This document shows positions 12,801 through 52,290 of a stretch of 52,290 nt of DNA, one piece after another. Source of the DNA: Catajapyx aquilonaris (Eukaryota); the NCBI GenBank assembly GCA_000934665.2, contig JYFJ02002710.1, forward strand, positions 1-52,290, read 5' to 3'. The position numbers were made by a program, and so were the translations under genes. Numbering within the stretch: the stretch's first letter is position 1; each line of letters opens with the position of its first letter. Under the pieces are notes generated by a model that saw only the letters and a list, made by a program, of their open reading frames with translations, was not told where the DNA came from and did no database searches.

Positions 12801-13660
12801 TATAAAATAATAGTTAATAGTTAAAACTCATGAGCATCGTCCACGTAGTACCATACCTCTCGCTGGGATTGCACATCCTCCCTCTCTGCACACACTACCG
12901 CCACTGTCAGGGACAATGAATAAGGGCTGATGGTACTATGGACCTTGCTGATGACTCACCCCAGACAAACAGAGGCACAGACTCAAACCAGTTGTATACG
13001 TTTGTGACCTCATAAACCCGGGTCAAATCCGTTCAATTTTAATAGTTTAAACTATAGCTATTTGCAGACGTACGTGTTCTCTCTCTGAGTTCGCGCGACT
13101 TTTCTCAGGGTCCAAGTTGCCTGAGCTCCACCGTCCGGTATACTCACATTGTAAGGGTTGAAGTGTCCTCCTGTACTGTCACACCCACCGGTGACATCCC
13201 CATTCTCATGGACATGGAAGCCATGCTCACCAGCGGTCAGCCCGGTCACGTTCCCCTGGATGGTCACCGGTCCGAAAGGAGGGTCCTCCTGGTGGAACCG
13301 GACCATACCATGTACCGGACCACCGCTGGGGTCAGTCATCACCACAACAGCATCACGGGCATCAAACTGTGGGGATGATAGTACGGGTGGTGTTCAGACG
13401 GGCATGAACAGGTCTGAACCTGGCCATCATACCTGGTATGACGGGAGTAGATAAGCCTCATAGACGTCGCTGATGACATCCGGTATGCCCACTGCCTTCC
13501 TGGCTACCACCACAGGGTAGTCCACGTTCTGCTGGTCCGGTAGGGGTGGCCGAAACGGGTTCTGCTCGGGCACAATTGGCCCCGGGGCGTTGTTTGGATG
13601 GGGCAGGCCCGAGGCCACCACCACCATTGTTGCCAGGAGGGACAGACACTTGTCCATCAT
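9856..13660 (-). CDS. Sod3: Extracellular Cu/Zn superoxide dismutase (SOD3-like), ~233 aa; exons 13660-13433, 13366-13148, 10110-9856
   Basis: Signal peptide [18 protein letters not shown]; metal-ligand motifs [55 protein letters not shown]; phase-0 GT-AG introns. Confidence 0.92.
10245..10420. repeat. Degenerate ~63-bp tandem repeat in SOD intron
   Basis: Recurring GAATCCCATGCGAATCCAATAAATCT and CTCGAATCAYGACA..AAATC..GTAAATCTC blocks. Confidence 0.6.
11150..12820. repeat. AT-rich low-complexity and short-period repeats in SOD intron 2
   Basis: Recurring ATATCAGTRTTA, TTAATAGTGAAATAGCTAATAAATTTAAATA and TAATAGTTATAAAATAATAGTT units. Confidence 0.65.
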
Positions 13661-26600: not shown

Positions 26601-29600
26601 ATTTACTACAGTATTTAATTTCACATCTAATTTAATCCTTATTAATCTTGATAATGTATTAATTAATTTGATAATGTGGTATTTAATCTAATATTGTTAT
26701 TAATTTATTATATTATGTAATTTATTGACTTGTTATTTATTATATTTTGGGAATGTGTCATTTTCTGTTGTGTCGATTAAATTGTTATTAATTGATAACT
26801 ATGAATGAATTAATTAATTTAGTAATGAATTGTTTTAATTATTAATTTGTCACTATCCCAGTAAGTAATTTAGTAATGAATTATTTTAATTAATTTGTTA
26901 GTATCCCATTAATTAATTAAATGTATTATTAATTTGTTACTATCCCATTAATTAAATGTATTATTAATTTGTTAGTATCCCATTAATTTAATTAAATGTA
27001 TTATTAATTTTAATACGTTATTATTTAATTTATTATTCACTATTTTAATTGTTCTATCAATTTATTACGTATTACTGTACCATAATTAGTTGCATGTAAC
27101 ATCACCTAGCATCATCATGTATTTTAATTTATTAATTAATTATTTTAATTTATTATAGTAATTTATGTATTATTTGGTCGAGAGGAATTAGTTGGATGTA
27201 ACATCGCGTAGCGTCATGTAACAAGAGAATGCCACCAGATGGTTGCGCTATTTTAAAAAAAACCAATAGTTCCGCGTTGAATGTTGGTACGTACAAGAAC
27301 GTACCAACGTTCGCCCTCATTACGAGCAATTTCAGTAGATTCAGGTGCAATCATTTGGTCGCAATTTGTGCTGAAGTCATTGCAAATATTTTCCTCTCTT
27401 TTTCCACCCCTGCCAGAGGAAGTGACGGGTATGTTTCCCCTTGTCGTTGCGATTAGTCGTGTGGCGGTCCACTGCATTTTTTTGACTTCTCCGCAGGTCG
27501 TGGCGGGTATGGCTCCGGTTTTGGCACCGGCATGCAGCAGCCTCCCCCGCAGATGCAGCAGCAGCAGCCGCCGCAGCAGAACCAGCCGGCTCGCACCCCG
27601 TACTCGACCAGGTCTGCCATGAGCCAGCAGCAAGGGTCGGCCATAGTGTTCAGGCAGGTGAGTCGGGTCGAAAGTCCAAGGTCTTGTGGTTAAGATCTTG
27701 TCTACTCTCAGTTTGGATGCACTCGCAAGCTGGCGTGTCCCACCTAAGGTGCCGATTTGTGCCGAAGTGTAGCCTAGCCTGTGTGTGCATCCAAATTAAG
27801 TGAAGCGTCGGGTTCCTCACCACAGGGGTGTCTTCTTCGATTAAAATTTTTGTGTCTCAATATGGCGAGTCGACGACGGATAAAAAAAGTTGACAATTTG
27901 AAAGCCAAGAAATGAAACCCTGGTAGGGAGGATCACTTTTCGCCTGCCGCTGTTTTGGGGTGCCGCAGGTGTGGCGGACCCGTCTGCGGGGGGCTCGCCC
28001 CAGGGTGCTGCCCATGGGCCTTTGAAAAAAAAAAAGCTCTACATGGTTGGCCCCCCAGACATTGGGTCACCCCCTCCCGAATATGCCAAAAAAAAAAAAG
28101 AGATCGCCCCCTAAACGCGGCTGGCCACAGAGCGGGTCCCCCCTTGTCTTCCCCGACCCACCGTCCCGTCCCCCTACCTTTCCCATTGTTCGTTAGCAGC
28201 AACAGCCGCCTCCGCCGCCACCCCCGCTGCCTAAGGTGAAGCCGCCTGCTGAGCCGGTGCCTCCGCCGCAAGCACAGCCGTTCCCACCTCCTCCACCGCC
28301 GCCGCCACCAGCCATCCCGCAGAAGGAGCCGGTGAAGCTAGAGGATGACGTGGCGATGGCGGCGTTGGATGCAGCCGACGCTCCCGACACACCCGTGACT
28401 CCCAGGAAGCCAGCATGGATCAAGAGCAAGGGGGCCGGTGAGTGTGAGTTAGCGCGGATTTGAAGGGTCCACACACATCAGGGCTGTACACTGTCCACTT
28501 GCTAATCTCATCTGTCCCCCAGTGTCTAAAGTGTCGAAGGGCACGAAGAAGAAGCGGTTGAACGCCCGTCTTCGCAAGATCCTGCAGCCCAAGAACCCAA
28601 TGATGGTTCTGACCGAGCTGCGTCCGGGCATCAAGTTCGACATAATCGAGCAGAAGGGACCCATACACCAGGCCATCTTCATCGCCAGCGTCGAGGTTAG
28701 TTGTCCGCACCTGGTGCAACTCAACGAACAAACAAGCTGACGAACACAATGTGACCAGTACGAATTGACCGGTTTAATCCCCTTCAGGTCGACGGCAAGA
28801 GCTACACCGGCCAAGGCGGCTCCAAGAACCAGGCCAAGCAGAACTCGGCCGAACGTGCGCTGAGGGCCATCCTTCTGGAGAAGCTGTGTCAGAGTCCAGG
28901 CGCCCGGGCTTCAACCGCTGGCGAGAGCAACGGAGGCGACTCTGCCGGACCCACGCCCATGACCACCGAGTCGGTGGAGGACATGGTCCTGACCCCGCTG
29001 GGCACCAGCAGCATGGAGCTGGATTCAGGTAGTGGGCCGAACAATAAGGGATCATGCCACGTACTGTCTTGTGAGTAGTTTAGTCCAGTCGGAGCTTCAA
29101 GGCTTTCCGCTTTGTCCTGCTGAGATGCTCTCGCTTTTGATGTACCAACCGAATGCGGATTGTAACTCTTGATTGTTTTCGCAGGTCTTCTAGGCGACAG
29201 CACGGCTGGTGTGCGGAAAGGACACCGGAACGTTCCCGAGGACGAGACGCCATGGAACTCGCTCGCTTCTTACGCTATCTATCGCCTGTTCTGCGAGTGG
29301 CAGACCCAAGGGGTGACTCTGCCTGCTTCAGTCCTCGGTGGACCGACTGATCCCAACGCAGCCGCACCAAACGCGCCACTGGGGGTGTCAATAGACTCTG
29401 AAGATGGAAAGGTATGCGATTGTCGCTCAAGTGTTTGCATCAGTGATGGGCATAATTCATTTTAAAATGACAAATTGCCTGCAAGTCAAATCATTCAATT
29501 CGTCCGTTTGGAATTAATTCCGAGTTGAATTGTGCCCGTCACTGGTTTGCATCATGTCTAACCCGACATGTTTTTACAGGGCGAGGCACAGCGTATCCCA

Positions 29601-30469: not shown

Positions 30470-32651
30470 TTACTTCAAGTACCGATAAGGCACATGGTCA
30501 TCTCGCAGCCGATGTCCGCACACTTCCACCACAAACCACAGGCCGGACACAGCCATACCCATCATCCACAGATAGAAGACGTTCCCAAGTTTGTTGATGT
30601 CCAACAGCCGTCCCTTCCTTACCCGCAGACTGTCCGGGTTGTCCCTCAGCATCTTAAAGTACTTGTTTAGAAAGTTCTGGTAGTTGATCCTGGACTCCAG
30701 TTGCTGGAACAGATGTCCCTGGAACGTCCGCCGGATGGTCCTGTCGTGCACCTGGAAGTGGACGTGATCTCGACCGAAGCAGGGACTGGTGTAGGAGTTG
30801 AGGGGCTTCTCCAGCCAGAAGAGGGTCTGCGGATTGCCAGATGCGTCCATGAAGTAGTGTCGCTCTCGGTTGTACAAGTAGTCGACAAGAAGGCAAGCGT
30901 AGTCTGTAGTCTGGGTGGCCTCGATGCAGTCGTGTATGGAGTTGACGATGGTGGTACTCTCCAAAAGCGATCTGTACAATGTAACTTAACATTCTTTTCA
31001 TACAAAGGCATGTTAACCTACCTGTACACTGGATTGTCCAGTTCCTCCAGGATCAGCGAGAGAGCCACGGACACCATGAATGTACTGCCAACTTCCATCC
31101 GGGATTCCAGGAGCTCTGGTGCGTTTCGAGGCAACCTCTCCGGACTCGGAAAAGTGATGAGAGTCACCAGTCTGGTCTTGTACAGCGTGACCACAATCAG
31201 TGCGAAGAACGACATGCATCCATGGAGCGTCCGGGTTCGGACGTACCGGCTTGCTGGTTGCTCCAGAAATTCCCGGAGCATGAACCGAGCATGGGAGGCC
31301 ACGGAGCGGGATTGGTCCAGAAAGCGAAGAACGACGGAGGTTCCAATCACAGCGAAAAGCAGTGCAATCCACATGCTGGGAGCGTACGGCTGGAATATTA
31401 CGTACCATTTGATGTCCTGTCGGGGCGTCCTGGTTACGAAGCCTCCGTGTAAGTACGCAATTGGGTACAAAAGCGCAACGGCTTTGGCCGATATAGGCGT
31501 AAACAGGATCAGACCTAATAATTGAAATAATTACTATGGTATTTTGCAGTACTTGGAAATAACCTACCTGACATGTCGACTTCTCCGCTAACGACAGCCC
31601 TTGCTATCCCAGACAGGCTTCCGTTTGCCAGCAGCTCCTTATCGCTGATCTCCGGAACCACCACGGTCATGGACATGTTGAACACAGCCTCCCAGTACAG
31701 GACCATCTCCTCTTCAAACGACAACGGCATCTCTTTTCTCTTACGTTTTCTAGCGTCCTGCACATCTATGTCTTCGACGAACCCGACAGCCACTTTCTTA
31801 CCATTCATGTTCATTGGAGGGGATGGAAACAGTTTGTGGCGGTCCATCCCTGCAGAGTACGTAAAGCGATTGAGGGAGTCCTCGCCTGATGGCATACAGT
31901 TGTAGCATACGTTGTGTACGATCATGGCTCTGCTGAAGTGTGAGAGCATCTTGAGGGCTATACCACGAACCGGATCGTCGAGAAGGATCGATGGATGCGG
32001 ATCACTCGTGTGGATCATAACCGGATCGATCAGGTTTCTGAGCATGAAGTGAGCCGCAGTGTGCATGATCAGCTCCGGCACACTGGATATGTTTCGGGCC
32101 AATATCAGGTTGAAAGCGCAGGATCCTCCAGGCCACAACCTGGATCTGAGTTCAGGCGGTTGCGTTCTGAAGGACAGCAGATGCTCCGGTTTCCACACCC
32201 ACGGATAGTCTGAAGGGTCGTACTGAAACGAGTCCATCCGACTGATCACAACAGGTCGGTTGATCCACACCAGCATCTCTTGCAGATGACGCAGAAGTTC
32301 CGGATCATCCATACCCACCCCCAAGGAGCACTCGGGGTAATGCCGCTTCAGGATATGACCTACGACCGATGCGACGGCTGCACTCTCTTTGTCCACGTCC
32401 ACCAGCCGGACATTTCCTGACTAAAGAAGCATCAAAACAACTTACATGAAATTTAAAATAAACAAGTATCGGCTTACCGACAATGTAACGAGCAACAGGA
32501 CGGTTAATGTCGCACCAAACATTTTTGTGCGTGCAATGACTCTCCAAGGCGCATTAGAAGCGAGGCAGCTGCAGAGTTTATTTACCTCAAGTAAACCCCA
32601 ATTTCCGGAGAAAGTCGTGCGCCACAAAACCAAGTAAATGACAGTCTTCAT
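30470..32651 (-). CDS. Divergent ionotropic receptor (IR/iGluR-like) 1, ~637 aa; exons 32651-32586, 32420-31568, 31514-31022, 30971-30470
   Basis: IR hallmarks: FPSPPMNMNGKKV, GSLSGIARAVVSGEVDMS (S1), IFQPYAPSMWIALL (M1), LIVVTLYKTRLVTLIT (M2), LDINKLGNVFYLW...FVVEV (M3); splice phases consistent (1914 nt). Confidence 0.82.
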
Positions 32652-33200: not shown

Positions 33201-36200
33201 ATGGCAAGTACTGCTTTGCTCTTTGCTGCTCTTGCGGTTGTCATCTTCGGTACCTTAGGAGCTCCGTACCCAAAGGACTACCACATCGTGTCCACTCATG
33301 TCGTACCGGTAAGGTGGAGCCAGTCTGTGTTGGATTGGATTAGTATGTCCCCTACTCTATGTACAGTACACAAATTGATGAATATTATGCTGGTACTATA
33401 TCGGTCAAAAAGTTCGAGCTCGATCTATGTTCAGCACATTATATGATCGAGTAGATTTAATTGGAAAATTTGCATATTTTTTTATTAAAAAAAATAATCG
33501 GGCGAGTACAAAAAAATTCGGTTTCGAATTAAAACAGTCGCTTATTGTGGACAGCCTACAATAATTAATTAATACATTAATAATTATTAACCAATTAAAT
33601 AATATTTAAAAATCCCGTTCTTTTCCGTCAATCGGAATTGCTGATTGCTATTCATTGTTGATCAAATGTTCATTTCAGTTGATTGTTGGTCGAATATGTC
33701 GATTTCCGTTCATTAATTGTTAATGTAATGATGATTTCTATGGTTAATCGAATGTTGATTTCAGTTCATTGTTAATATCTAATGTTGATTACAGTTCATT
33801 TCCAGAGTCGAATGGTTTGATTTTCATTTGTCAGTCTGATCAGGGAGCATAAATACTACATAAGAGGCGCAAACATTCGATTTCCGCGTCTCTCTGTTTG
33901 GGGCCGTTGCCAACGCTGGCGGCCATCTTGAAGTGTGGGCAACGCCAACGAGGTATAAATAGGGTACAGGCAAAAAATAGGGTCCGCCATCTTTGATTCG
34001 CTCGTGTTCTTGCCGTGTAGTTGCCGTGGCCGCCACAATCATCAAAGATGGCGGACTCTCTTTTTGCCTGTACCCTATTTACCCCTCGTTGGCGTTGCCC
34101 ACACTTCAAAATGGCCGCCAGCCTTGGCAACGGCCCCAAACAGAGAGACGCGGACATCAAAGGCCCCGACAGAAGTTTGCTGGTCTAATGTTTTGATTTG
34201 AGTCCATCGTTATGGCTCGATGTTGATTGTTAATTGGATGTTGGTCCATCCACTTCTGGAGTGCGGTTGACCACAACAAAATTTCAAGTGCTAGCGGTAC
34301 ACTCGAGAAGAGGGGGAAAAACCGCATTTTGTCAGGCAAGCAGGCCACTTTGCACAGTTGTTCCTTCCAGGCCCAACTAATGCTGGATTAGGTTACAATA
34401 TTAATTTGATTTGTTTTAAATGTCCGCAGCACACCACTCGCTTCAAGAGATCCTTGTCGTCACCATCCCACGAGGTAAGTTTCCGTATACCCGGCATGAT
34501 CATGCAGGATTATACAACACCTGCTCATGTCTCATCATCCTCAGACCCGACAAAACCAAGATGAGGATTGTCACTACCTGTCGCTGACCCACGTGGATCC
34601 TGACCTCGACTTCTGTTTCAAGATACATGTAGAGGAAGGCCTGAGGTTGGTCCTGATGGACAAGGAGGGCGAAGAGGAGTTCAAGTTGCCCAACACGCCC
34701 GAGGGGGCATTGGTCAAAGGGTATGCCACGGCCGGGGTCAGGAACTCCTCGGCTCTTGGTTACCTTCACGAGGGACAGTTCTTCGGGCGCCTCGCGGTGC
34801 ACGGGAAGGACTTTGTGGTCGACCATATCCACACGCATGACGCGGAGGGCGCTCCTTTTCCGGCACGTCGGGACCACAAGGCGATAGTGTACCGGCATGT
34901 CGAGCCATCCAACCAAGAAGAGACAGCAGATGATGACGGCAAGGAATTACGGAGGTCCAAGAGGGCAGCTCCAGAGAAGTTCGGGGCTTTCGGGAGGCAG
35001 GCCAAGGAAAAGGTGCCTTTCCATGAGTACAACCCAGTCAGGACCTTCCACCCGGAGAGGTGAGAGTGTATATATGTCACATATATGTCACACAAGCATT
35101 TGCCACACGCCTTTCATATCCACAGGACCTACCCTGTCGTGTGCAGACTGGTGTTCATGGCAGACCACGTGTACTACAAGTTGGTGGCCTCTGGATCGGA
35201 GGGATCCTTGCTGGCCTTCCTGAAGGTCGTCACCTACGCAGTCAACATCCGGTACATCTTCTCGCACGTCAACTACGAACCAGGCAAGCCGAACCCTGGA
35301 ACTAGGTCGGACAACATACGATTCAGAATCAATGATGTAAGTCTCACACCTTTTGTATCTTGAGCGGGGCTCTCGAACCATCAGTTAGTGAGAACTGTGA
35401 GTGTCTTAAAGACTGTGATGACAACACTCTGACTCCTCCTTGCAGATTGTGCTCTTCAAGGATACAGACCAGGAAGGTTATCCGATCACCAGCTCCTTCG
35501 AAGTTACCAACGCACAGTCGTTCCTGGGGGACATGAGCATGGGATTGAACTTGCAGGAGTTCTGTCTAGGGATCGTCGTCTCTGGCCAACTGTTCAAGGA
35601 AGGCCCTCCCGGTGAGTTCCGCATTGTCAATAAAGCAAAGGTCTTCCTTACCTTTTCTTGGCTTGTCAAACAATTGATTGTTTCCAGGTGCCGCCTTCGT
35701 TCCGACTCCGAAGAAGATGACTGGAGGGATATGCGAGGAGACCTTATGGGTTGGAGGCAGGATGATGAGCAGGAACCTGGTTGTCGTCTCGGCAGCCGCC
35801 AGTGAGACGACCCTGAATCCCATGACGAAGACGTCGACCACCATAGCCCACTACATGGCCATAGCCATGGGAGCCAAGGACGAAAAGAGCAAGAAAGAGT
35901 GCCACCCGAAAGGTAAACATCCTATACAAGGCCAGTTAATCCTCTCTGTAATGTCCCTTATTCCGGCTATTCAGACCCGGAGAAGAACGGCTACTATCTG
36001 ATGTACAGCGACGACCAGAGCGGAAACCTCCCGAACCACTGGCTGCTCTCAAACTGCTCGAAGATGGACATCAAGAGCACCTTGAAGGAGAAAATCAACT
36101 GCTTCACTGTTGGTGACACCTCCTACTGCGGTAACGGTGAGTATTATTTTACAGTCCTCCCAAGGGTATAGTCTAACGGTGTCATGTTGGGGCTACCTGG

Positions 36201-39200
36201 CATGATGGGAATCGAAGACATTTTTTTGAAGATGCCATGACGTTGTGTTACTTTGTTCAGGCATCATCGAGCGAGGCGAAGAGTGCGACTGCGGCACTGA
36301 GCACGTCCGGTTCGAGTGTGGGGGTCACAATGACTGTTGCCAACTAGCGTTGCATCCGGAGGAGTGCAAAATCATGTAGGTTGTCGCAGGTCAACTCATC
36401 GCAAACCTATAGGGCCGTATTCAGAGTCAACAACAAGAAGTTAGTGCAGTGCTTTAAACCACGTGACTCAGTTCACTAAGAAAAGTCGCATTCAGAGTCG
36501 CGCTTTAGGCCTAGTGCGGACTTAGTGCGGACTTAGTGCGATCCTACTAAAGCGGTGCACTAAGGCAAAACTTAGTGAACGGGACCCCCTTCTTTTGCGT
36601 CGAACTAACATCGAAATAGGCAGTGGCGGTAGTTTGAAAATAACTTAACAGCTTTTTAAACTGCTGCTAAGCGATTTTTGGCGCTCAATCTTCATTTGTT
36701 TCCCCAGCCTGGGGAAACCAATGAAGATCGTCGCCCTGGGGATTAAATCAACATTAAATGAAGCACGAATGAAGATCGTCGCCCGCCGACCCCAGCTCTG
36801 ATTTTTTTTTTTTCGTAAATTCGTCATTACTAATTATTTAATCATCTAAAATGTGTTTTCAGGTCTATAAAATGTATTAAAATCGAAAAAAACATGAATC
36901 AATATTATTTAAAAGCCCATTTATCGTACAGACGGTGCCCGAAAACCTGCCTGTGAAATTGTGGCAACACCGCGTCTCGCTAGCGCAGTGTTCGAACCTA
37001 GTGCGCTCCTCTAAGTAGGCAGTGAGGCGACTCTGAATGGGAGCAACTAGTGTGGCGCTAATGTGGACCTAGCGTCGCACTACAAGTAGTTAGTGTGAAC
37101 TTTTGCACTGCATTAGCGAACGACTCTGAATACGGCCCATAGAGTTGGCTTGTTGTTTTATTTCCTTGAGAAGACGGATGTGTTGAGTTTGTGTGTGTGT
37201 GTGTCTTTTCAGTATCCCAAAGCCGTGCGCCGACGGAAAGAAGAAGTGCGCGATGTGCGGCGAAGGGAAGAAGGACAAATGCGAGGCAGGCGAAACACCG
37301 TGCGCACAGGGAGAGGTTCCGTGCATACACTGGGCCAAGATGTGCGACGAAGACGAGAAGCCGTGCGTCGCCTGCAACAAACCCGATAGCGTGTCGAAGT
37401 TCTTCCCTCGCGTTTGCACCGAAGCTGAGATCAACGACAATGCCACGAGAGTATGCGACGAGGAGGAGCCGCCGTGCATCCATTTCAGGATGTGCGAGGA
37501 GGAGGAGATCCCGTGCTTCCCGTGCCTGGACATGACCACGACGGACTGCGACAAAGAGATGGAGCTCGAGGGGAAGAAGAGCGGGCTGGCCCGTGAGAAG
37601 TGCGAGAATAACCAGAACCCCTGCAGACCATTGGAAGAGTGCGGGACTGGAAAGAAGTCCTGCAAATTTTGCCCCAAATCCGGAGATTGCAGGGAGAAGG
37701 ACGGCTCGTTCAAGGAAGGCTACTGCGACACGGACCGTTTGGAACCAGAGCTTCCGTGCGCGGTGGACAAGCTGTGCGAGCCTGGCGCCAGTCCCTGCGT
37801 TTTGCGGGAGGTCGCCGCCATGACTAGGGATTGCCCAGACTTCCATCGGGACGAGCCGCCGAATTACGTCCTGTGCCAAAACTACACGTTTCCTTGCAAG
37901 CTTATGCCAGCCTGCACCGATAACTCGAAGGCCTGCGACCCTCCAGATGAGGGTAAGTATTGCCAAGATGGGGTGCCATGCGCCCCGAAGACGGAGGCGT
38001 GCAGATTGTATAGTATACCTTGCCTCGTGGAATGCCCCGAGGGCAAAACCTGCACAGATAATGAGCTGTGCGGCCCTACCAAGAAGCCGTGCGTCAGTCC
38101 CAAGCTGTGCTCATTCGGAGAGAAGCCCTGCACCATGTGCGGCCAGCCAGGGTACCCGGAGTGCTCGACCTGCGACATAATCAAAGCCTGCGGGAGTGAC
38201 ATGGTGCCCTGCGTCGTGAAAAAGGCCTGCGAAGATACGGAGACGCCGTGCAGGTGCGGAAATGGAGACGAAACGTGCGATCAGATCTACGGGCTAGAAG
38301 ATGTTGAACGCGTTTGCTTTCCGAACGAGGTGTCGTGCTTACCAAGGAAGGTGTGCACCGGAAGCGAGGGTCCGTGCAAAAGTGACAGGGTAGATCCGGA
38401 TTGCCCCCCAGCGGCAGATGCTTATGACTGCTCGCATGACGAAATGCCGTGTCAGTGCAAGAAGGCTTGCGATAAGGGCGAGAAGCCCTGCCTGATGAAA
38501 GCTGACTGGGACAAGTGCCAAATAAGCAACACCAGTCTCACCGTCGATGAGCGAAATTGCTCCGATGCGGATATCAGGGAGTGCTATGCCAACACCTACC
38601 CCTGCATTGAAGCGAAGCAATGCAAGGACGACGAGTGGCCCTGCACGAGATGCGGCAAGCCAGGGGAGCCCTCGTGCACCGACGGTGCATGCGTCGCAGA
38701 GTGCTCCAGACGTGCTTGCACAACATCATGCGCGAGACCCTTTTGCAACCAAAGCTGCGAGTTCCGGTATTTTGACACGTCGTTGAACATTCCTAAAGGC
38801 TGCTGGCGTGGCAATTGCCTCAAGGCCTGCAGCGAGGAATCTCGACCATGCTACGACGAATGTTGGGAATGCGACGCCGCCTGCTCGACCGAGGCCTGCC
38901 TGGGAACATGCGCTGATATCAGGAAGATGTGCGATGTAGAATGCTTAGGTGTCGTTCCTGAGGGCGTGTGCGGCAACAAGTGCGATCTGAATCACAAGAG
39001 ATGCGACAAGGACTGCGAGTCCCAGAAGAAGAGCTGCCTCTGGGCTTGCAAACTCTGCGTGAAGGGATGCGAAAAGTGCACGACCTGCTCGATGGAGGAG
39101 ATGCCGTGCGAACACAAGCCGGTGTGCGGGTCCGAGAAGACACCCGAAAAGGACAATTGCTTCCGGATGCCGGTGGCGTGCGTGGTGTGCAACAACTCGT

Positions 39201-41245
39201 GCACCGAATTGGAGGTGACGGAAGGTGGCAACGAGACACGGTGCGACCCAGGGGTCAGATCCTGCGAGGTGAACAAAGACACACACTGCCAGATGCTAAA
39301 GACTTGCGCGGAAGATGAGACGCCGTGTGTGCAATGCGGCGCCGCAGGACAGGAACCCTGCAGTGGATGCGTCGACAAGTGCAAGCCTGGGGAACTGCCG
39401 TGCTTGCGTCCGGTGATGTGCGATAAGAGCGTCGGCCCGTGCTACGTGGCCGGCAGCAGCGACGAGGATAAACCGTCCAAGTGCTTCCAACCAGATGTGA
39501 AGGTGGACAGGGAGTGTTTGACAAACGAGATATCGTGCGTGTGTCCGACGAAATGCGCGGAAGACGAGGAGCCTTGCAACCTCTGCGAGGGATACGAGTG
39601 TAGCTACGTCGAGAACCCGTGCGCTCCGGGCCAGTTCAGGTGCGCCCGTGCGCGCGACTGCGGCGAGACTGAGGTGCCGTGCTGTCAGAAGGTGTCGAAT
39701 AGTTGCAGTGAGGTGAACTGCGGTGCTGCGGAGCTTCCCTGCCTGGAGGAGATGCTGTGCGAAGAGGGGGTTCTTCCGTGCGTGCCCTGCGGCAAGGCGG
39801 ACCAGCCCAGGTGCGGAGACTGCAACATCACGTGCAAGCCGAGCAAGAGGCCCTGCAGAATCCGGCCCATGTGCAGCTTGGAGGAAGCCCCTTGCTGTCC
39901 GATCGATAACACAACGTGCGGAACATCCAAGCTGTGCAATAAAGACGAGGTTCCTTGCAAGCGCATGCCCATGGAGTGCAAGCTGGGACAGGCACCTTGC
40001 AAGGAGGATTGCATGGTCGATGGCAAACGGGATCCATCGTGCTTGCAGTGCGATTTGCTGCCGTGGAGCGAGACGGAGAGGGAAAAGCCTTGCGTGATGC
40101 CGAGGCAGTGCGATCAGTACGAGGTTCCGTGCATACTGTGCGGACGTGAAGGGCAGGACCCGTGCACCAACTGCTCCAAGCCGTGCGACTACGGGGAGTT
40201 CCCGTGCAGGAGGGTCGAGCCGTGCAAAGCCGAAGACCCGTGCGGAGCGACATCCAAGTCGGGCGAGTGCAGGCCGAGCGAGCTGCCTTGCCAGGCATAC
40301 AGGGACTGCCAACCACTAGAAGTCCCTTGCGTCAGGTGCGGAGGGAGCAGGGACGAGCCGAAATGCGAGGACGTGAAGCTGCCCAAGATGGCCTGCGGCT
40401 TTGCGGACCTTCCATGCGTCTCTGTTGTCCAATGCGAGGACGAGTATCCATGCTGCAGCAACGAATCGCTGTGCAAGAGGCAGTGCGACATTGGCGAGGT
40501 GGCGTGCAGAAAGGCGGAGGCATGCGAAGAGCGGCTGCCGTGCGCAGAATGCGACGAGCCGCAGGAATGCTCCGAAGTCCTTCCTCCGGAGTGGGCCTGC
40601 GACTACGACAAGATTCCGTGCCTCCAGGTGATGCCTTGCAACGAGAATGAACAGCCGTGCTTCCCGTGCAGGACCGACGTCGAGTGCTACGCTGTCCTGG
40701 CCCCCTTGGTGCCGTGCAGGGCAAACCAGATCCCGTGCAAGAAGCCCGAAATGTGCGGAAAGGACAGGCCATGCGTGTACTGCAATGCTCCTCGCCAGCC
40801 CATGTGCGGGAAGGGTCAGGTTCCGTGCGCTGGAAACCAGGTTCCGTGCCAGAGGGCCATACCCTGCGACAAATTAGGGAAAGGGAAAGCCCACTGCACC
40901 AAGCCCAAGGAGTGCGAGCTCGACGAGAGGCCCTGCCTCCCGTGCGGGAACATCGGGGAACCGGAGTGCGATGCCAAAAACGATGATTATCGGGTCTGCG
41001 ATCCGAACGAGGTCCCCTGCACCCCGCAGGAGCTTCCGTGCCAGCCCAGTCCAATGGGGAAGGAGAAGCCCCTGTCCCCGTTCTACGCCCTTACCAAAGA
41101 CACCATACGGCAAAGGCCATACGGAGATCAGAAGGAAGGATCGGCGTCTGCTGCCCTGGGCAAGGCCTCGGCTCTCTTTTGGTCATGCGTCGTGGCGATG
41201 GTCCTCACCGGTGGAAACGCCATCGCCCTTGTCCTGCTTAGGTGA
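33201..41245 (+). CDS. ADAM10/17-like pseudo-metalloprotease A fused to a giant Cys-rich repeat ectodomain, ~1859 aa; exons 33201-33308, 34430-34474, 34545-35059, 35126-35336, 35446-35611, 35688-35912, 35975-36136, 36261-36375, 37213-41245
   Basis: Signal peptide; RFKR and RRSKR furin-type sites; CRLVFMADHVYY; FCLGIV; degenerate Zn motif HYMAIAMGAKDE; Met-turn GYYLMY...SGNLPNHWLLSNCS; disintegrin start YCGNGIIERGEECDCG; phase-2 junction matches the 4033-nt exon; hydrophobic C-terminus. Confidence 0.85.
33841..34180. mobile_element. Foldback MITE family 1 (CAGGGAGCAT termini), one end truncated
   Basis: ~130-bp inverted arms; same sequence recurs at 42676-43026 and 44576-45284. Confidence 0.85.
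36412..37138. mobile_element. PIF/Harbinger-like MITE
   Basis: 17-bp perfect TIR GGGCCGTATTCAGAGTC ... GACTCTGAATACGGCCC flanked by a 3-bp ATA duplication; subterminal inverted CATTCAGAGTCGC copies; non-coding. Confidence 0.8.
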
Positions 41246-41552: not shown

Positions 41553-44500
41553 ATGGGTTGTTTGTTCTTGGCTGCTCTTTCGGTTGTCATCACCGGAACC
41601 TTAGGAGCTCCGTACCTCAGGGAGTACCACATCGTGTCCACTCATGTTGTACAGGTAGGCTCCGTGTGAATGACACAGACTTCCTCTAATCTTCCTCATT
41701 CTGTCCGCAGCACACCCTGTTTAAGCGATCCACTTCGTTCCACCCCGTAAGTTGCCGGTACCCAGTTGTACAACATGTGACTTAACCAGTCTCTATCAGC
41801 AGGCCTGGCACCACCATGAAGGATGCCACTACCTGTCGCTGACCCACGTTGATCCTGACCTTGACTTCTGTTTCAAGATACATGTAGAGGAAGATCTGAG
41901 GTTGGTCCTGATGGGCAAGGAGGGTCGAGAGGAGTTCAAGTTGCCCAACACGCCCGAGGGGGCATTGGTCAAAGGTTATGCCACAACAGGGGTCATGAAC
42001 TCCTCGATTGTTGGTTACCTTCACGATGGACAGTTCTTCGGCAGCCTCATGGTGAACGGGAAGGACTTTGGGGTTGACCATATCCACACACACGAAGGGT
42101 ATGTTACGGAGGGTGCTCCTTTTCCGGCCCGTCGGGACCACAAAGCGATAGTGTACCGGCTTGACCATATTGTACAGTTGGATGACCAAGAAAGGGTTGA
42201 AGAGCAGACAGATGACCTGAGGAGGTCCAAGAGGGCAGCTCTAGAGAAGTTCGGAACTTTCGGGAATGCGGCCAAAGAAGTGGTGCCATTCCATGGGTAT
42301 AACCCAATGAGGACCTTCCACAAGAAAAGGTGAGTCACACATGTGATGACCACGCAGGTTCACTTATAGGACGACCCTCCACAGGGATTACCCGGTGGTG
42401 TGCAGACTGGTGTTCATGGCAGACAACGAGTACTACAGGTTGGTCTCTGGGTCTGAGGATTCTTTGCTGGCCTTCCTGAAGGTCGTCACCTACGCAGTCA
42501 ACATCCGGTACATCTTCTCGCACATTAACTACGAACCAGGCAGGCCGAACCCTGGAACTAGGTCGGACAACATCAGGTTCTGGATCCATGATGTAAGTCA
42601 AAAAGGCCGGCGTCACGATTTGAGCCTCGGTCGCACGACCAGACGCTTTGCGACCGACAATTGGTGCGACCGAGGCAGGGAGCATAATTATACTACATAA
42701 GAGGCGCAAACTTCTGTCGGCGACTTATGTTCGCGTCTCTCTGTTTGGGGCCGTTGCCAAGGCTGGCGGCATTTTGAAGTGTGGGGAACGCCAACGAGGT
42801 ATAAATAGGGTACAGGCAAAAATAGATGGTTGTGGCGGCCATGGAAACTACACGGGAAGAACACGCGCGAATCAAAGATGGCGGACCCTATTTTTGCCTG
42901 TACCCTATTTATACCTCGTTGGCGTTGCCCACATTTCAAGATGGCCGCCAGCCTTGGCAACGGCCCCAAACAGAGAGATGCGGAAATCGAATGTTTGCGC
43001 CTCTTATGTAGTATTTATGCTCTCTGACCGAGGCTCAAATCGCGAGGGAGTAAACAAGGATATTTTCCCACAAACTACAACCTCCTGCAGATTGTGCTGT
43101 TCAAAGATACAGAAGGTTACCCGATCAAGAAAAGTCCCTACGACGTTACCAACAACGCCCAGTTTTACCTGCAGGAGTTCAGCATGGGGTTGAACTTGCA
43201 GGAGTTCTGTCTAGGGATCGTCGTCTCTGGCCACGTTTTCAAGAGAGGTCCTCCCGGTGAGTTCCTCATTGTCAAAGCAAGGTCTTTCTTACCCTTTTTT
43301 TTTTTTTTGGCTTGTCAAATAATTTTGTTCCAGGTGCCGCCTTCGTTCCGACTCCGAAGAAGATGACTGGAGGGATATGCGAGGAGACGATATGGGTTGG
43401 AGGCAGGATGATGAGCCGGAACCTGGTTGTCGTCTCGGCAGCCGCCACAGCCACGAGTCTGAATCCCGTGAAGAAGACGTCGACCACCATAGCCTACTAC
43501 ATGGCCATGGCGATGGGAGCCAAGAATGAAAAGAACAATGCCACATGCCACCCGAAAGGTAAACGGTCCCCTACACACATACATAAACCCGCAGAAAGTT
43601 TGTTGGTATGTATGTATACGCCCGAAATACCTAACACACTTCTAGAGTGCTGAGAGTGCTGAAACTGGTCACACTGCAGATTCAGGGAAAAGTCCGAAAA
43701 CTACAATTTTTTAAACAAAATTATTGTGGCACAGATTTCGCCGAGAAGGGCTACTATCTGATGTACAGCGACGACCTGGACGGAACCAGGAGGAACCACT
43801 GGCTTCTGTCAGGCTGCTCGAAGATGGACATGAAGAACATATTGATGGAGAAAGCCAACTGCTTCCTTGTGGGGGACACCTCGTATTGCGGAAATGGTCA
43901 GTGTCCTCCAAGGAGAAACGGCAATGCATGTTTACGTGCCCTCACAGATTTTTGAGCCTCGGTCGCACGACCAGACGCTTTTGCGACCGACAAATGCCTT
44001 GTTTTTTGTCGGTCGCAAAGAGTCTGGTCGTGCGACCGAGGCTGATGACATCGTGAGGGCGCTGTAAAAACTGATCTTTACTTCATCATATATGTTACTT
44101 TCATTTGTGCAGGCATCATCGAGGAAGGAGAAGAGTGCGACTGCGGCACTAAGCACGTACCGTTCCAATGCGAGGGTCATACAGGCTGTTGCGAACTAGC
44201 GATGAACCCGAAGGAGTGCAAAGTCATGTAGGTATCGCCTCTTCCACTGTCTCGCGAGTCAACTCATGCGAACCAGATTGGCGTACTTTGTTATACTTGA
44301 ACGCCTTGAGCCTCGGTCACACGACCAGACAAAAAATGGGCCCCCATACAGTCCGTTAAACCAAAGAATGATCTGACGTCACTTACCTACTCCGATCCCT
44401 CCAATCATGTCCTCGGATCGCTCTTCAAGCAAACTACTGCTAATGCTTAAAAAAAATACGGCTAGTGTGACTACGTCAGATCGTTCTTCGACTTTACATG

Positions 44501-47500
44501 CCTCCAGTCGTCTCGAGCCAATTCTTGTCGGTCGCAAAGCGTCTGGTAGTGCGACCGAGGCTCAAATCGTGAGGTCAGGGAGCATATACTACATAAGAGG
44601 CGCAAACATTCGTCGATTTCCGCGTCTCTCTGTTTGGGGCCGTTGACAAGGCTGGCGGCCATTTTGAAGTGTGGGTAACGCCAACGAGGTATACATAGGG
44701 TGCAGGCAAAAATAGGGTCCGCCATCTTTGATGGTTTTGGCGGCTATGGCAACTACACTGCAAGAACCAGGGCGAATGAAAGATGGCGGACCCTATTTTT
44801 GCCTGTACTCTATTTATACCTCGTTGGCGTTTCCCCCACTTTAAAATGGCCGCCAGCCTTGGCAACGCCCCAAACGGAGAGACGCGTACATCAAAGCCGC
44901 CGACAGAAGTTTGCGCCTCTTATGTAGTATATGCTCCCAGATAAGAGGCGCAAACATTCGATTTCCGCGTCTCTCTGTTTGGGGTCGTTGACAAGGCTGG
45001 CGGCCATTTTGAAGTGGGGGCAACGCCAACGAGGTATAAATAGGGTGCAGGCAAAAATAGGGTCCGCCATCTTTGATGGTTTTGGCGGCCATGGCAACTA
45101 CACGGCAAGAACACGCGCGAATCAAAGATGGCGGACCCTATTTTTGCCTGCACCCTATTTATACCTCGTTGGCGTTGCCCCCACTTCAAAATGGCCGCCA
45201 GCCTTATTGGCAACGGCCCCAAACAGAGAGACGCGGAAATCAATGGCGCTGATCGAAGTTCTTATATGTAGCATATGCTCCCTGGTGAGGGCGTGAATAG
45301 CTAGGCCTCATGTGTCACCGTTTGGTGGTGTCATTTCAGAATACCGGAAAGGTGCCTGCCGGACGTGAGGAGCTGCGCGATGTGCGGCGGATGGGACCTG
45401 AGGTCCTGCGATCCTGAGGAGATACCGTGCGCCGAGGGCCGGGTTCCGTGCATACAGTGGGCCAGCAGATGCATGGGCGCCGATCCGTGCGTCGGATGCA
45501 ACACGGACAACGGGACCTTCTTCCGTCGCGATTGCGAGGACAGCGACGAAGGAAGGATATGCAATTCTACGGAGCTACCGTGCATGCGATTCAGGATGTG
45601 CGACGAAGGAGAACTCCCGTGCTTTCCGTGTCTGCGCATGAGCGATGAACAGTGCGACGATAAGCTGGGAGAAAAGAAGGAAAGGACCGGGTTGTCGTAC
45701 GACAGGTGCAGGGACGGACACCAGGTTCCGTGCCATCTCCGACAAGCGTGTCCGCCTGGAGCTAAGAGCTGCATCATGTGCGACATGAGCGACGACAGGT
45801 GCAGGCACCAGAACGGGTCGTTGCTGGAAGGGTATTGCGACACGGACCGATTGGAACCGGAGCTTCCGTGCTTGGAGGAACGGACGTGCGATCCGGACGA
45901 GATGCCATGCGTTCCATGGACGGTGGACCCAAAGGTCCGGAACATGTGCCCAGAGATCGTGGCGAGCCAGTGCCTACCCAACACGCTACCGTGCAGGCTG
46001 ATGGACATCTGCCCAGAAGACGCGGTGTCTTGCAACGGGACGGACAACAACACAGGTCCGTACTGCTACAGAAACAGGCAGTGCACAGCGAAGACCGAGG
46101 CGTGCAAGAAGGGTACGGTCGCTTGCTTCGTGACTTGCCCCGATGGACGGAAGTGCACTCCGACCGACCTGTGCGGTGTGACCAGGAAGCCGTGCGTCAG
46201 TCCCAGGCCTTGCGATAATGACACGCCATGCATCATGTGCGGACAGCCAGGGTATCCCGAGTGCAGCTACTGCGAAAGTCCCCTGGCTTGCAGGCCGGGA
46301 GAGGTGCCGTGCGTGCCGAAGAGGACATGCGAGGACAGCCACGAGCACTGCAAGTGCAGACCTGGAGACGAAACGTGCAGGAAAGTCCCGGGACAAGACG
46401 ATGCCGATCGGTACTGCGAGACGAACGAGGTGTCGTGCTACCACAGGAGAAAGTGCACTGGAAACCTGGGTCCGTGCAGGATGGACGGAGTGCCGGATGA
46501 TCCGGAGTGTCCGGGCACGGACGAGGAATGCGGGGTCGATGAGGTGCCGTGTCGGTGCATGGTTCCGTGCGGGAATCACGAGACACCGTGCGTGAGTTGC
46601 GCTCCCAACACGTACCCTTGCATGGAGCCGAGACAATGCGAGGGCGACGAGTCCGGGTGCGTCAGATGCGGCAGGTCAGGAGAGCCAGCGTGCGTCAGTG
46701 AGAAGTGCAAGAGCCGGTGTTTGGACGACGCATGTTCGTGTTTCAGGCCCAACTGTACGGCCACATGCGGGACCGACTGCGACCTCTCCTGCACGACCCG
46801 GTCCTGCATGGAAACCTGCGGGGACCTCAGGAAAATGTGCGAGGCCGACTGCGCACTGGATGGGTGCGTACAAAAGTGCGGAGTGTACCACGCCAGATGC
46901 AGCAAGGACTGCGAGTCCAAACGTGAGAGCTGCATCTGGGCTTGCAAACTATGCGTGAAAGTGTGCGACAGTAGCAATACCTGCTCGCTCGAGGAGGTGC
47001 CGTGCTATCCGAAACCGAAGTGCGAGTCAGGACAGGCGCCGGAGACACACGGGTGCGTGCAGGTGCCGGTGCCGTGCCAGATGTGCAACGACACGTGCAT
47101 AGGCAGGAAGCGGACTGACCCGGACAACCCGCACGAGGTCAATCCGCACAGATGCGAACCTGGAGTCAGCTCGTGCGAAGTGAACCACAACACCGGATGC
47201 CAGGAGCAGGTCGCGTGCATGGGCGACACGGATCCGTGCGTGTTATGCGGATATCCGGGAGGGGAAGAGTGCAAAGGAGGTGTCGATCATTGCAAACTGG
47301 GTGAGCTGCCATGCGTGCGTCCGAGGGTGTGCACCAATGAGGACACGCCGTGTCATGGAGACAAGTGCTTCCAGCCCGGTGTTGAAACGGATAGGAGGTG
47401 CTTAAAGCATGAGATACCGTGTGTCTGCCCGAAGGCGTGCGAGGGCGATGAGACGCCTTGTACCCCGTGTCGTGGCCATGAGTGTAGGACAGCGAAGAAC

Positions 47501-49183
47501 CCGTGCGTACCGGGGCAGATCTCGTGCGTCCTTGCCCGTGACTGCGAGTATAACGAGGAGCCGTGCTGTCACAAGGGGGCGCCAGATTGCGATGAGAACT
47601 ACTGCGGTACGGCCGAGCTGCCGTGTCTGATTAGGAGACAATGCGAACAGGACGAGACGCCGTGCGTTCGTTGCGGCGACGTGTACGAGCCACAATGCGG
47701 TGACTGCAACGTGACCTGCAAGGCGAACCAAAGGCCATGCAGGATCCGACCCATGTGCGAACCAGGTGAGGTGCCTTGCTGTGATGCCAACGACACGTCG
47801 TGCATGATAACAGGGGATGCATGCAGGGAAGATGAGGTACCTTGTAAGTACATGCCAAGGGAGTGCGAGCTGGGGGAGTCGCCTTGCAAGTACGTGTGTC
47901 CTCCGGGTGCTACAGATTGCGTGGTGTGCGGGAGGATGAAACCGTGCGTGGAGCCTAGACATTGCGATCCGGGCGAGGTACCGTGCATCCTGTGCGGACT
48001 TGAAGGACAGGAGATGTGCACTAACTGCTCGAAGCCGTGCGACTTCGGTAAGTTTCCGTGCAGGAGAGTCAGACCGTGCCATCGGACAAAGCCGTGCGAC
48101 AAGTGCAGACCAAGCGAACTGCCTTGCCAGATGACTGTTGCGTGCAGGGAAGGTATGATCCCGTGTGTACAGTGCGGTGGAAGCTGGCGAGAACCGGACT
48201 GCGATGATGTGAAGCCGCCTCAAATCCCATGCAACTTTTCGACCCTTCCGTGCATACCGGCTGTGCCTTGTACGTACGAGTATCCATGCTGCGATAATCC
48301 AGACAAATGTAAACGAAAGTGCGACTTGGGCGAAGTGTCGTGCGTCATGGCACGGCGATGCGGGAAGGAACTTCCGTGCACAAAATGCAACGATCCGCTG
48401 TCATGTTCCAAGATCAGGCACCCGGAGAAGCCGTGCCGGTACGACGAGGTTCCGTGCATCCAGGCGACGCCGTGCAAACCGGACGAAACTCCGTGCGTCT
48501 TGTGCGAGAAGAGCTCCGTCGAGTGCAAGAACAACTCTGTCGAGTGCAAGAACATCTCTGTCGAGTGCAAGAACAACTCTGTCGTGTGCAAGAACATCTC
48601 TGTCGTGTGCGACAACAACTCTGTCGTGTGCGACAAGAACTCTGTCGAGTGCGACAATGTGCAGGATCCCAAGCGACCCTGCTGGCCCCACGAAATCCCA
48701 TGCACTGTGCCCGAAATGTGTGGTGAAGATCCGCCATGCGTGTACTGCAGCGCTCCAGGCAAGCCCGTGTGCAAGTACCGGCAAAAACCGTGCCGTGGAG
48801 ACCAGGTTCCGTGTCTGAGAGCCACGGAAATCAACGATTCTTGGAAGACCTTCCGTGACTTGGTACTTACCAGATTCTGCGAGTTTGGCGAGACCCCGTG
48901 TCTGCCTTGTGGGGACTTCGATGAACCCGACTGCCTGGATAATCCATGCAAGCCCAACGAGGTCCCATGCATCCGGACTACGTTGCGGTGCCAGCCCGAT
49001 CAAATGGGGTCGAAGAAGCCGAAGTCCAGGTACCAATCACAGACGAGCGACGACGCCATACGAGTGAGGCCATACGGACATCATAACTCGGCATCTGCCC
49101 TGCTGGGCAAGACCCCAGGACTGTGCATCGTGGCGTTGGTCCTCCTCATCCGAAACGAGTTTTTCAGGGTTCAATGTTACTAA
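41553..49183 (+). CDS. ADAM10/17-like pseudo-metalloprotease B (tandem paralog), ~1795 aa; exons 41553-41654, 41711-41746, 41800-42329, 42385-42592, 43091-43256, 43334-43558, 43735-43896, 44113-44227, 45340-49183
   Basis: Same nine-exon structure and phases as gene A; Zn motif YYMAMAMGAKNE; GYYLMY Met-turn; CGNGIIEEGEECDCG; 3844-nt Cys-rich terminal exon with hydrophobic C-terminus. Confidence 0.85.
42676..43026. mobile_element. Foldback MITE family 1 with 7-bp TSD, nested in a family-2 element
   Basis: CAGGGAGCAT...ATGCTCTCTG termini; ACCGAGG duplicated at 42669-42675 and 43027-43033. Confidence 0.88.
43952..44043. mobile_element. Short palindromic element family 2 (GAGCCTCGGTCGCACGACCAGAC...); further copies at ~42618-43040 and ~44306-44568
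   Basis: ~40-bp inverted arms AGCCTCGGTCGCACGACCAGACGCTTTTGCGACCGACAA / TTGTCGGTCGCAAAGAGTCTGGTCGTGCGACCGAGGCT. Confidence 0.8.
44576..45284. mobile_element. Tandem dimer of foldback MITE family 1 (44576-44940 and 44941-45284)
   Basis: Outer termini CAGGGAGCAT / ATGCTCCCTG flanked by GTGAGGT and GTGAGGG; the second copy lacks its first ~16 bp. Confidence 0.85.
48513..48657 (+). repeat. 21-bp coding tandem repeat (SVECKNN-like, ~7 copies) in gene B
   Basis: CTCTGTCGWGTGCRASAASAW units; absent from the equivalent position in gene A. Confidence 0.85.
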
Positions 49184-49331: not shown

Positions 49332-50255
49332 TCAAAACATTTCGTCCGAGGGCGAAGACCTGATTATCACTACAATCAGTACTATCGCAATCACTATCGT
49401 CATGACCATGAGCTTCCTCCTCTTGAACACGTCCTTCACCCCATTGGCACACATCTGGCCGCAAGAAGGCTTGACAGGTACGTCCTCCATGTCCTGGTGA
49501 GACAAAGACAATGCAATCAGCGTAAGGTACAGACAACTTATGCCGGACATACCTGTTGAGGATGATGGTTTCCTTTTGTGGTTGGTCCTGTAATCATCGG
49601 TATCCTTTGCTCTTCGTCGTTTGAGCCCATGACGATGACTTGTAGGGGTGGGTCAGTGCTGGAACAGCAGATAATAAAGATGGTTATTACACGCTCTAAC
49701 AGGAAGACTTCCAGGAGTACAGTAGCAGCCACGGCATGTCTTGGAGGTGAAAGTGACATACCTGGCTGCCCTCTTCATGTCTTCCAAATGACTCAGTATG
49801 CACTCAGTCACCTCGGCGTCTGTCGATACTTGAACTGCCGTCTTCCCATTGTTGTCTCCCACTTCGCAACCAGCTCCAGATTCCAGGAGGGACCGGACCA
49901 CCTCCAGGTGTCCGTACTTTGCAGCAAGATGCAAGGGCGTCTCTCCGTCGTTGGTCTGTCCATCGACATCAGCTCCTGATTGAACTAGAAGGTAGCACAC
50001 GTCCTGGTATCCACCCTTGGCAGCCTCATGCAACGCCGCGCGTCCGTGGCTATCCCGCGCGTCCGGATCGCCCCCATTTTGTAACAGCACTTCGCACACC
50101 AAAATGGCTCCAGTACCAGCCGCAACGCTCAGTGCAGTTGACCCTATACGACATCGTTCATTCACATCAACTCCTAAGTTCAACAGCTCCTTAGTCCGTT
50201 TCAGGTTGCCCGTTTTAGCAGCGACATGGAGATCGTTCACTCGTGTCTCATCCAT
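49332..50255 (-). CDS. Tail-anchored ankyrin-repeat protein, ~253 aa; exons 50255-49762, 49658-49553, 49493-49332
   Basis: Four to five ankyrin repeats (LHVAAKTG, GSTALSVAA, GRAALHEAAKGG, GETPLHLAAKYGHLEVVRSLL); C-terminal KRRK followed by LMVMTIVIAIVLIVVII; splice phases consistent. Confidence 0.82.
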
Positions 50256-50644
50256 CGTTAGACTGTCCAAATAACCGTGATTCGGACCTTATCATCGGTA
50301 TGGTTCTCATATCGCATGAACTCTCGGACTTTGATAGGAGGTTATAGTGTGAAGCAGGCGTTGGGAGCACATGTTCGAATCATGTCGACTGCGCAACATT
50401 CAAAAAAAAAAATTATGAACTTAAATAAGCTGTAAAATGTAATTAATCAACAATCTGCACATTGGTGTAGGTCGAGTTCCAACAAAGTTATCACAGATAG
50501 TTTTTACCCTTGAAAGACTTGGATCAACAGCTGATACGTTGCAACACGATAAAACGCTGTTTATACACACGCATCATTCTCTTATCAGACAAGTTGGAGT
50601 GCAATGACTACAGACGTACGAGGCCGCAAAAGTGGCTCGAAATT

Positions 50645-52195: not shown

Positions 52196-52290
52196 AGTGG
52201 GGGCTCTTAGCGAGATGAAGGGGACAAGTTGGACAAAAGCACCAAACTTTGCATGGAGTTTTGTTTGGTCCTATGCTAATAGTTTTTGGT

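Follow-up and report, generated by a model that had tools for sequence, protein, structure and literature searches.

According to the sections of PMC4885070 drawn on here, HEXXHXXGXXH is the zinc motif consensus of the ADAM proteases, and section 3.3 of that source gives a calcium-site consensus for the disintegrin shoulder. The same source describes the ADAM22-type non-catalytic ADAMs, which keep the fold of the M domain without activity, and ADAMDEC1, in which the M domain is followed by a short disintegrin-like piece. We analysed a window of 52,290 nucleotides from Catajapyx aquilonaris (assembly GCA_000934665.2, contig JYFJ02002710.1, positions 1 to 52,290 of the forward strand), in which a single open exon at 37213–41245 (+) behind an AG acceptor encodes 1,343 amino acids, 199 of them cysteines (14.8%). 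A first-pass annotation had proposed a Cys-rich repeat in one 4-kb exon, which holds; absent from it was that the exon is likely the tail of a dead ADAM gene, as judged from the predicted gene structure, and this gives the repeat a likely role. We estimate a probability of about 0.6 that the exon encodes the disulfide-bonded stalk of a membrane-anchored, catalytically dead, ADAM10-derived surface protein for recognition or adhesion.

Gene A, as predicted, comprises nine exons joined in phase, all with GT–AG borders, of which 37213–41245 is the last. It encodes 1,859 amino acids in the order signal peptide, ADAM prodomain, furin-type site, ADAM10/17-type domain without the zinc motif, the first half of a disintegrin domain, repeat and hydrophobic tail. 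The protein resembles ADAM10 (Kuzbanian) and ADAM17 from the signal peptide through the prodomain, the furin-type site and the M12B-like domain with its Met-turn to the disintegrin shoulder. It differs from them in that the zinc motif is lost and that the disintegrin arm, the cysteine-rich domain, the transmembrane helix and the cytoplasmic tail have given way to about 1,290 amino acids of repeat and a short hydrophobic end. The first His of the zinc site is kept in A; Glu and the other two His are replaced. Single exons of A gave no Pfam match to M12B, and the assignment is carried by the PDB matches of exon 7 (Table 1) and by a bridge through a relative on contig C7651 of the same genome, which aligns with exon 6 of A, has an intact zinc motif and matches ADAM10 (E-value 3e-30) and Reprolysin_2 (E 1.7e-17). 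The disintegrin match of A covers only positions 1–26 of 75 in the profile, below the cut-off, and shoulder and arm were not found complete; the shoulder nevertheless keeps the calcium-site consensus of PMC4885070. Exon 3 had no Pfam prodomain match and owes its name to position and relatives, and no Pfam match to the ADAM cysteine-rich domain was found in exon 9. Non-catalytic ADAMs of the ADAM22 type act by binding, and the head of gene A would function in their manner. These ADAMs keep full disintegrin, cysteine-rich and EGF domains, whereas gene A does not, and in the family of gene A, unlike the ADAM22 type, the loss of activity happened inside a local ADAM10-like clade. ADAMDEC1, a secreted vertebrate protein, differs from gene A by its nearly intact zinc motif and by having no repeat stalk.

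Searches within the source genome placed the repeat also on C395, C1804, C2534, C3688, C8302, C2586, C2226 and C10297; such family counts are lower bounds, and several contigs are near-identical and may be alleles. On every contig covered far enough, the repeat lies downstream of the same dead head or of lectin exons, and on C1325 (twice), C395, C1804, C2534 and C3688 head and repeat adjoin with fitting phases. Not one zinc-motif residue is kept in the tandem paralog of gene A in the window (gene B), nor in C395, C1804, C3688, C528a, C528b or C382. In a tree of 15 heads, eight dead-site rows were grouped at 99/99 and five repeat-bearing ones at 94/95, within a weakly resolved ADAM10-like set. 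Three extra ADAM10-like genes were observed on C7651, C5793 and C4771, two of them with an intact zinc motif and the third with Glu and the third His replaced and with a full disintegrin and cysteine-rich part; those on C5793 and C4771 continue into the disintegrin arm. The C395 member is embedded in a gene cluster that, judged by eye from the translations, is glutathione-S-transferase-like.

The relatives also bear on the position of the repeat. C528a, C528b and C382 encode a dead head without the repeat, and their last exon, of about 60–70 amino acids, lies behind a phase-2 intron and ends in a hydrophobic tail; a basic-PY motif is common to C528a and C528b. Because these repeat-less relatives share the tail layout behind the phase-2 intron, the repeat of gene A appears to sit where the short stalk was, and in the predicted models it is flanked on one side by a head and on the other by a tail that are both conserved. 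C528 carries a tandem pair, and both C528 and C382 hold short dead-ADAM genes with a stalk of about 45 amino acids. The last approximately 60 residues of exon 9 form a Cys-poor linker and a hydrophobic tail, and in both A and B the most hydrophobic window is followed by only 3–5 residues, leaving no cytoplasmic tail. The combination of spacer and hydrophobic end looks like a glycosylphosphatidylinositol (GPI) signal by eye and hydropathy, and a terminal transmembrane helix is also possible. In C395 the repeat is split by a phase-1 intron. Eleven second-half lectin exons precede the last repeat exon of C1804 at the place matching that intron (stitched coordinates above 27000 on C1804 are one base high), and at least 13 precede it in C2226. 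Pfam Lectin_C scored above the cut-off in all four lectin exons tested, placing them in the C-type lectin fold family, and the donor and acceptor phases that were checked match the phase-1 intron of C395. A frameshifted element resembling a long-terminal-repeat retrotransposon, with gag, reverse-transcriptase and integrase-like frames recognised by eye, was seen within the lectin exon array at about 23600–27400 of C1804.

If gene A encodes such a surface protein, it would enter the secretory path, where its cysteines would form disulfides mostly within modules, and a GPI anchor or a terminal helix would hold it at the membrane. The modules, strung together, might then serve as a protease-resistant spacer lifting a non-cutting, binding head off the membrane. 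Based on the sizes of similar small modules, we estimate the stalk at some tens of nanometres if extended. The likeliest role would be recognition or adhesion at an exposed surface, because one subfamily has lectin-type exons inside the same stalk, and the basic motif before the anchor may permit shedding.

The repeat itself is well above chance. The pattern C-x(2-5)-E-x-P-C occurs 30 times in the exon of A, against a mean of 1.1 and a maximum of 7 in 1000 shuffles, and a strict six-Cys pattern occurs nine times in each of A and B (shuffles 0.19 and 0.15, with maxima of 3 and 2). A profile hidden Markov model (HMM) of 38 positions, built iteratively from a seed of 37 strict six-Cys matches, matched 33 times in A, twice within a central insert, and 31 times in B. 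This corresponds to about 30 six-Cys modules in A, with a unit of about 38 amino acids and the spacing C-x6-C-x5-C-x6-C-x(0-4)-C-x(4-8)-C. At 15 bits or more there were 27 matches per protein compared with 2.1 in shuffles with the cysteines fixed, a control that is partly circular since the HMM was built from the same proteins. An independent alignment of 83 out of 97 well-scoring modules gave C-x3-E-x-P-C-x5-C-x3-E-x-P-C-x2-C...C, with C2 and C3 invariant, C1, C4 and C6 present in at least 90%, and Glu as the majority residue in both loops. The example quoted in the first-pass annotation was found at 40109, and the repeat it described is real, but its literal unit C-x(2-4)-[DE]-E-[VLT]-P-C matches only twice in A and seven times in B, compared with 26 and 24 matches of the general form C-x3-E-x-P-C. 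Its supposedly frequent follower, [VI]-x-C-G-x(4-5)-P-x-C, proved rare (two matches in A and four in B), and the period is shorter than the 40–55 amino acids suggested, with medians of 39 in A and 38 in B. The exon is not uniform: a central insert has a different Cys pattern (Table 1), and for its counterpart in B AlphaFold2 predicted a helical hairpin, at a predicted local distance difference test (pLDDT) of about 80–85 over residues 41–80, from only seven sequences.

Could the modules belong to a known family? No significant match for the module was found in Pfam, NCBIfam, PDB, two large protein libraries or the ESM Atlas, and these searches found no homologue of the repeat outside the source genome. 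Pfam scans of whole exons returned no family at E ≤ 1, and those of the 83 modules returned 14 weak matches at E ≤ 10, with no vWC, TIL, WAP or antistasin-type Cys-rich family among them; vWC, TIL and WAP were compared through Pfam scans only. Literature searches, at the level of listings, turned up nothing on this module. The absence of a fit to known Cys-rich families, which had been judged by eye, was thus borne out: a confident match to a known Cys-rich repeat family was looked for and none was found in these searches. A bolder possibility, which we hold only tentatively, is that this would be a new family of disulfide modules having a fold of its own, which would have arisen within the final exon of an inactive ADAM10 copy through amplification of the first disintegrin-arm loop and would provide a length-adjustable scaffold (stalks of about 45 to 1,300 amino acids) that hosts lectin-type arrays for long-reach surface recognition. 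An origin of the module from the disintegrin arm is plausible on positional grounds: the first half-module stands where the ADAM10/17-like relatives in the genome have C-x5-P-C-C, and P-C-C occurs in 10 of 97 modules. Half-module and disintegrin-arm comparisons scored about 5–6 bits only.

The tandem paralog B encodes 1,795 amino acids, with a head 77% identical to that of A. Cysteines were indeed kept while spacers diverged, as had been claimed: 187 of 191 aligned cysteines are conserved in the repeat region (A has 198 there, seven of them unaligned), whereas identity at other residues is 41% in the repeat and 76% in the head. For A against B, the ratio of non-synonymous to synonymous substitution rates (dN/dS) is 0.46 over the head and 0.53 over the repeat. 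Because dS is lower in the head (0.33; 33201–36375 against 41553–44227) than in the repeat exons (0.79), gene conversion limited to the heads is suggested. No tandem repeat was found at the DNA level in exon 9 of A; in the B exon a recent in-frame expansion of 21 bp × 7.2 at 48502–48652 adds six cysteines and several N-glycosylation sequons. The fast divergence of the repeat might alternatively mean that the modules themselves are a multivalent, fast-diverging ligand array like LDL-receptor repeats, with the head secondary, and the Glu majority in both loops and a faint likeness of the first 22 columns to LDLa would suit such an array. We consider it rather unlikely, as no region has a dN/dS of 1 or more, some relatives combine this head and tail without the repeat, the acidic motif of LDLa is missing, and the higher identity of the head comes with its lower dS, pointing to gene conversion as much as to selection.

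LDLa (PF00057) does resemble the module in length (about 40 amino acids), in having six cysteines and tandem arrays, and in a first loop of C-x3-E-x2-C; hhalign aligned 22 columns at a probability of 6.6–18%. The module differs by lacking the acidic calcium cage and the F/I core, by Pro before C2 and C4, and by a C4–C5 gap of 0–4 instead of 5. We rejected identity with LDLa, for the acidic calcium-binding motif before C6 is present in none of 97 modules and in all 35 LDLa controls from the genome. The LDLa HMM scored 6.3 bits on modules, 5.4 on Cys-fixed shuffles and 69 on LDLa itself, and the reverse test from the module side gave a small excess (12.6 versus 9.0). The LDLa disulfide pattern is 1-3, 2-5, 4-6, which modules without both C5 and C6 (7 of 71) fit poorly. 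EGF-like modules (PF00008), which serve as tandem stalks, also have six cysteines, and some of our modules share a Gly-rich last loop with them, but the C3–C4 gap of 6 and the variable C4–C5 gap differ. Identity with EGF was likewise rejected (hhalign 0.4%; EGF HMM 4.1 bits versus 3.6 on Cys-fixed shuffles), EGF_FBN_1st being touched by one of 83 modules at E 0.016. These comparisons, made at the sequence level with LDLa and EGF profiles from the same genome, and the low-confidence structure model leave a shared fold possible.

A signal peptide directs a protein into the oxidising secretory path, where disulfides are the default. Because a signal peptide is predicted and cysteines tend to be gained and lost in pairs, a disulfide-linked element is a better reading of the exon than a metal-binding one. 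Tails from C4 to the next C1 contain two cysteines in 43 of 71 modules, none in 7, one in 7, three in 11, five in 2 and seven in 1. Four modules with one extra cysteine in the C2–C3 linker (two sites, each in A and B) are all preceded by a one-Cys tail, and B is without one C5–C6 pair and one inserted pair present in A. A two-module structure model has single bridges flanking C3–C4 of one module and C1–C2 of the next. As the model bridges fit closed eight-residue loops and some modules are cut to C1–C2 or C3–C6, sequential pairing (1-2, 3-4, 5-6) is suggested as the simplest fit to the truncated modules; 1-3/2-4/5-6, the pairing of EGF-like modules, is a possible alternative. The first-pass idea of a disulfide-linked rod is therefore favoured in its disulfides and unsupported in its extended rigidity, with a predicted template modelling score (pTM) of 0.39 for two modules.

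Several observations weigh against the stalk of a dead ADAM10-derived surface protein. All the gene models, with every splice in them, are predictions from sequence, and the hydrophobic tails are modest (best 15-residue means of 1.5–2.8). The repeat-bearing clade falls just below strong support, with long branches flagged. EPN was present in 1 of 24 lectin half-exons and QPD and WND in none, which makes sugar binding doubtful, and the lectin-bearing locus might consist of two or three genes. With a pLDDT of 69 and no regular secondary structure, the two-module model is weak and establishes neither rigidity nor pairing. Tails with an odd number of cysteines make up 20 of 71 (those with one, three and five), and one more has seven; pairing does not explain the three-Cys tails. 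Beyond residue 190, A has 212 cysteines; since the tail accounts for one, the ectodomain count is odd. Such spare cysteines, with the recurrence of seventh-Cys modules (the 11 three-Cys tails), would be expected if the protein were shed and cross-linked into an extracellular structural polymer of the cuticle, egg coat, cement or mucus type; a basic site before the anchor, which in C395 and C2586 is a complete R-x-K-R, could allow the release, and the helical insert could dimerise. However, the ectodomain of B has an even count (208 cysteines minus the 2 of the tail), an odd module is in some cases balanced by the one next to it, and the head is under purifying selection, so that we regard such a polymer as unlikely.

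Zinc or copper binding through C-x2-C knuckles, in the manner of metallothioneins or zinc fingers, would find a counterpart in the knuckle-like C-x2-C-x3-G turn of 32 of 97 modules, in the best PDB profile match of the module (a PHD finger, E 2.5) and in Zn_Ribbon_1 (touched by 2 of 83 modules, best E 0.01). These matches are at chance level, the predicted signal peptide leads into an oxidising path, the C4–C5 gap ranges from 0 to about 4, with no residue between the two in 10 of 97 modules, and a His comes after the turn in just 4 of 97, exon 9 of A having 8 His. The metal binding raised in the first-pass annotation is accordingly very improbable. That the exon is junk, part of a pseudogene or a gene separate from the ADAM head might be argued from its sequence-only models and from the searches outside the source genome, which found no homologue, but is scarcely credible given open frames of 1,343 and 1,280 codons, the retained cysteines, a dN/dS of 0.53, in-phase head and repeat neighbours on several contigs and polyadenylation-like hexamers after both stops.

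Table 1. Features of genes A and B and of their surroundings in the window.
Feature	Position	Strand	Basis
Gene A exon 1: start codon, hydrophobic signal peptide	33201–33308	+	ATG, GT donor; hydropathy peak at residue 1
Gene A exon 2: prodomain start	34430–34474	+	AG/GT, phase 0
Gene A exon 3: prodomain, furin-type basic site at 34950–34964	34545–35059	+	Paralogous exons on 10 contigs
Gene A exon 4: M12B-like domain	35126–35336	+	Gene model, relatives
Gene A exon 5: M12B-like domain	35446–35611	+	Gene model, relatives
Gene A exon 6: degenerate zinc site at 35849–35881	35688–35912	+	Alignment to intact motif of C7651, E 7e-6
Gene A exon 7: Met-turn region, start of disintegrin shoulder	35975–36136	+	PDB matches ADAM17 (E 0.0012), ADAM10 (E 0.0036)
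Gene A exon 8: disintegrin shoulder; phase-2 donor fits exon 9	36261–36375	+	Pfam Disintegrin 16.2 bits, E 0.018, below cut-off
Gene A exon 9, first block: about 12 six-Cys modules, first without C1/C2	37213–38686	+	HMM matches
Gene A exon 9, central Cys-rich insert, C-x3-C-x6-C-x3-C, predicted helical hairpin	about 38681–39079	+	AlphaFold2 on paralog B 46679–47005; kept in two other subfamilies (C395 and C2586 types)
Gene A exon 9, second block: about 18–19 six-Cys modules	39077–41053	+	HMM matches
Gene A exon 9, tail: basic R-x-R-P-Y motif 41108–41122, small-residue spacer, hydrophobic end 41171–41239, stop	41054–41245	+	GPI-signal-like by eye/hydropathy
Gene B exons 1–8: 41553–41654, 41711–41746, 41800–42329, 42385–42592, 43091–43256, 43334–43558, 43735–43896, 44113–44227	41553–44227	+	GT–AG, phases as A
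Gene B exon 9: same repeat, helical insert, tail	45340–49183	+	Gene model, alignment to A
Element of about 300 bp like a miniature inverted-repeat transposable element, inverted arms of about 100 nt; once in A introns, three copies in B introns	33876–34161, 42676–43027, 44575–45260		Copies 80–92% alike
Second inverted family	43938–44570		
Two divergent ionotropic-receptor-like genes flanking the A/B pair	30470–32420 (-), 50645–52270 (-)		Lig_chan sub-threshold for one piece, E 0.0017
Cu/Zn superoxide dismutase exons, the second behind a signal-peptide-like frame	9856–10158 (-), 13058–13393 (-)		Pfam Sod_Cu
Ankyrin-repeat genes, C2H2 zinc-finger gene, replication factor C subunit 2, double-stranded-RNA-binding-motif exon	2265–4141 (+), 49653–50288 (-), 6740–8647 (+), 19500–20400 (+), 28755–29078 (+)		
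Tandem array of about 33 bp, non-coding-looking	18369–18980		Repetitive open frames on both strands

In summary, the six-Cys repeat is real and as yet without a class; it forms the tail of a pseudo-ADAM family that is lineage-restricted and has been seen in one genome. As the module matches no known family in the searches run, it is a candidate addition to the small set of disulfide-rich modules that build animal ectodomains, from one genome so far. In that genome, apparent successive stages are represented by full ADAM10-like copies whose site is intact, by dead heads carrying a short stalk, by dead heads carrying a repeat exon set of 1,000–1,340 amino acids, and by forms in which lectin exons lie inside the repeat. 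How a repeat domain arises, and how a sheddase becomes a binding protein, can thereby be tested directly.

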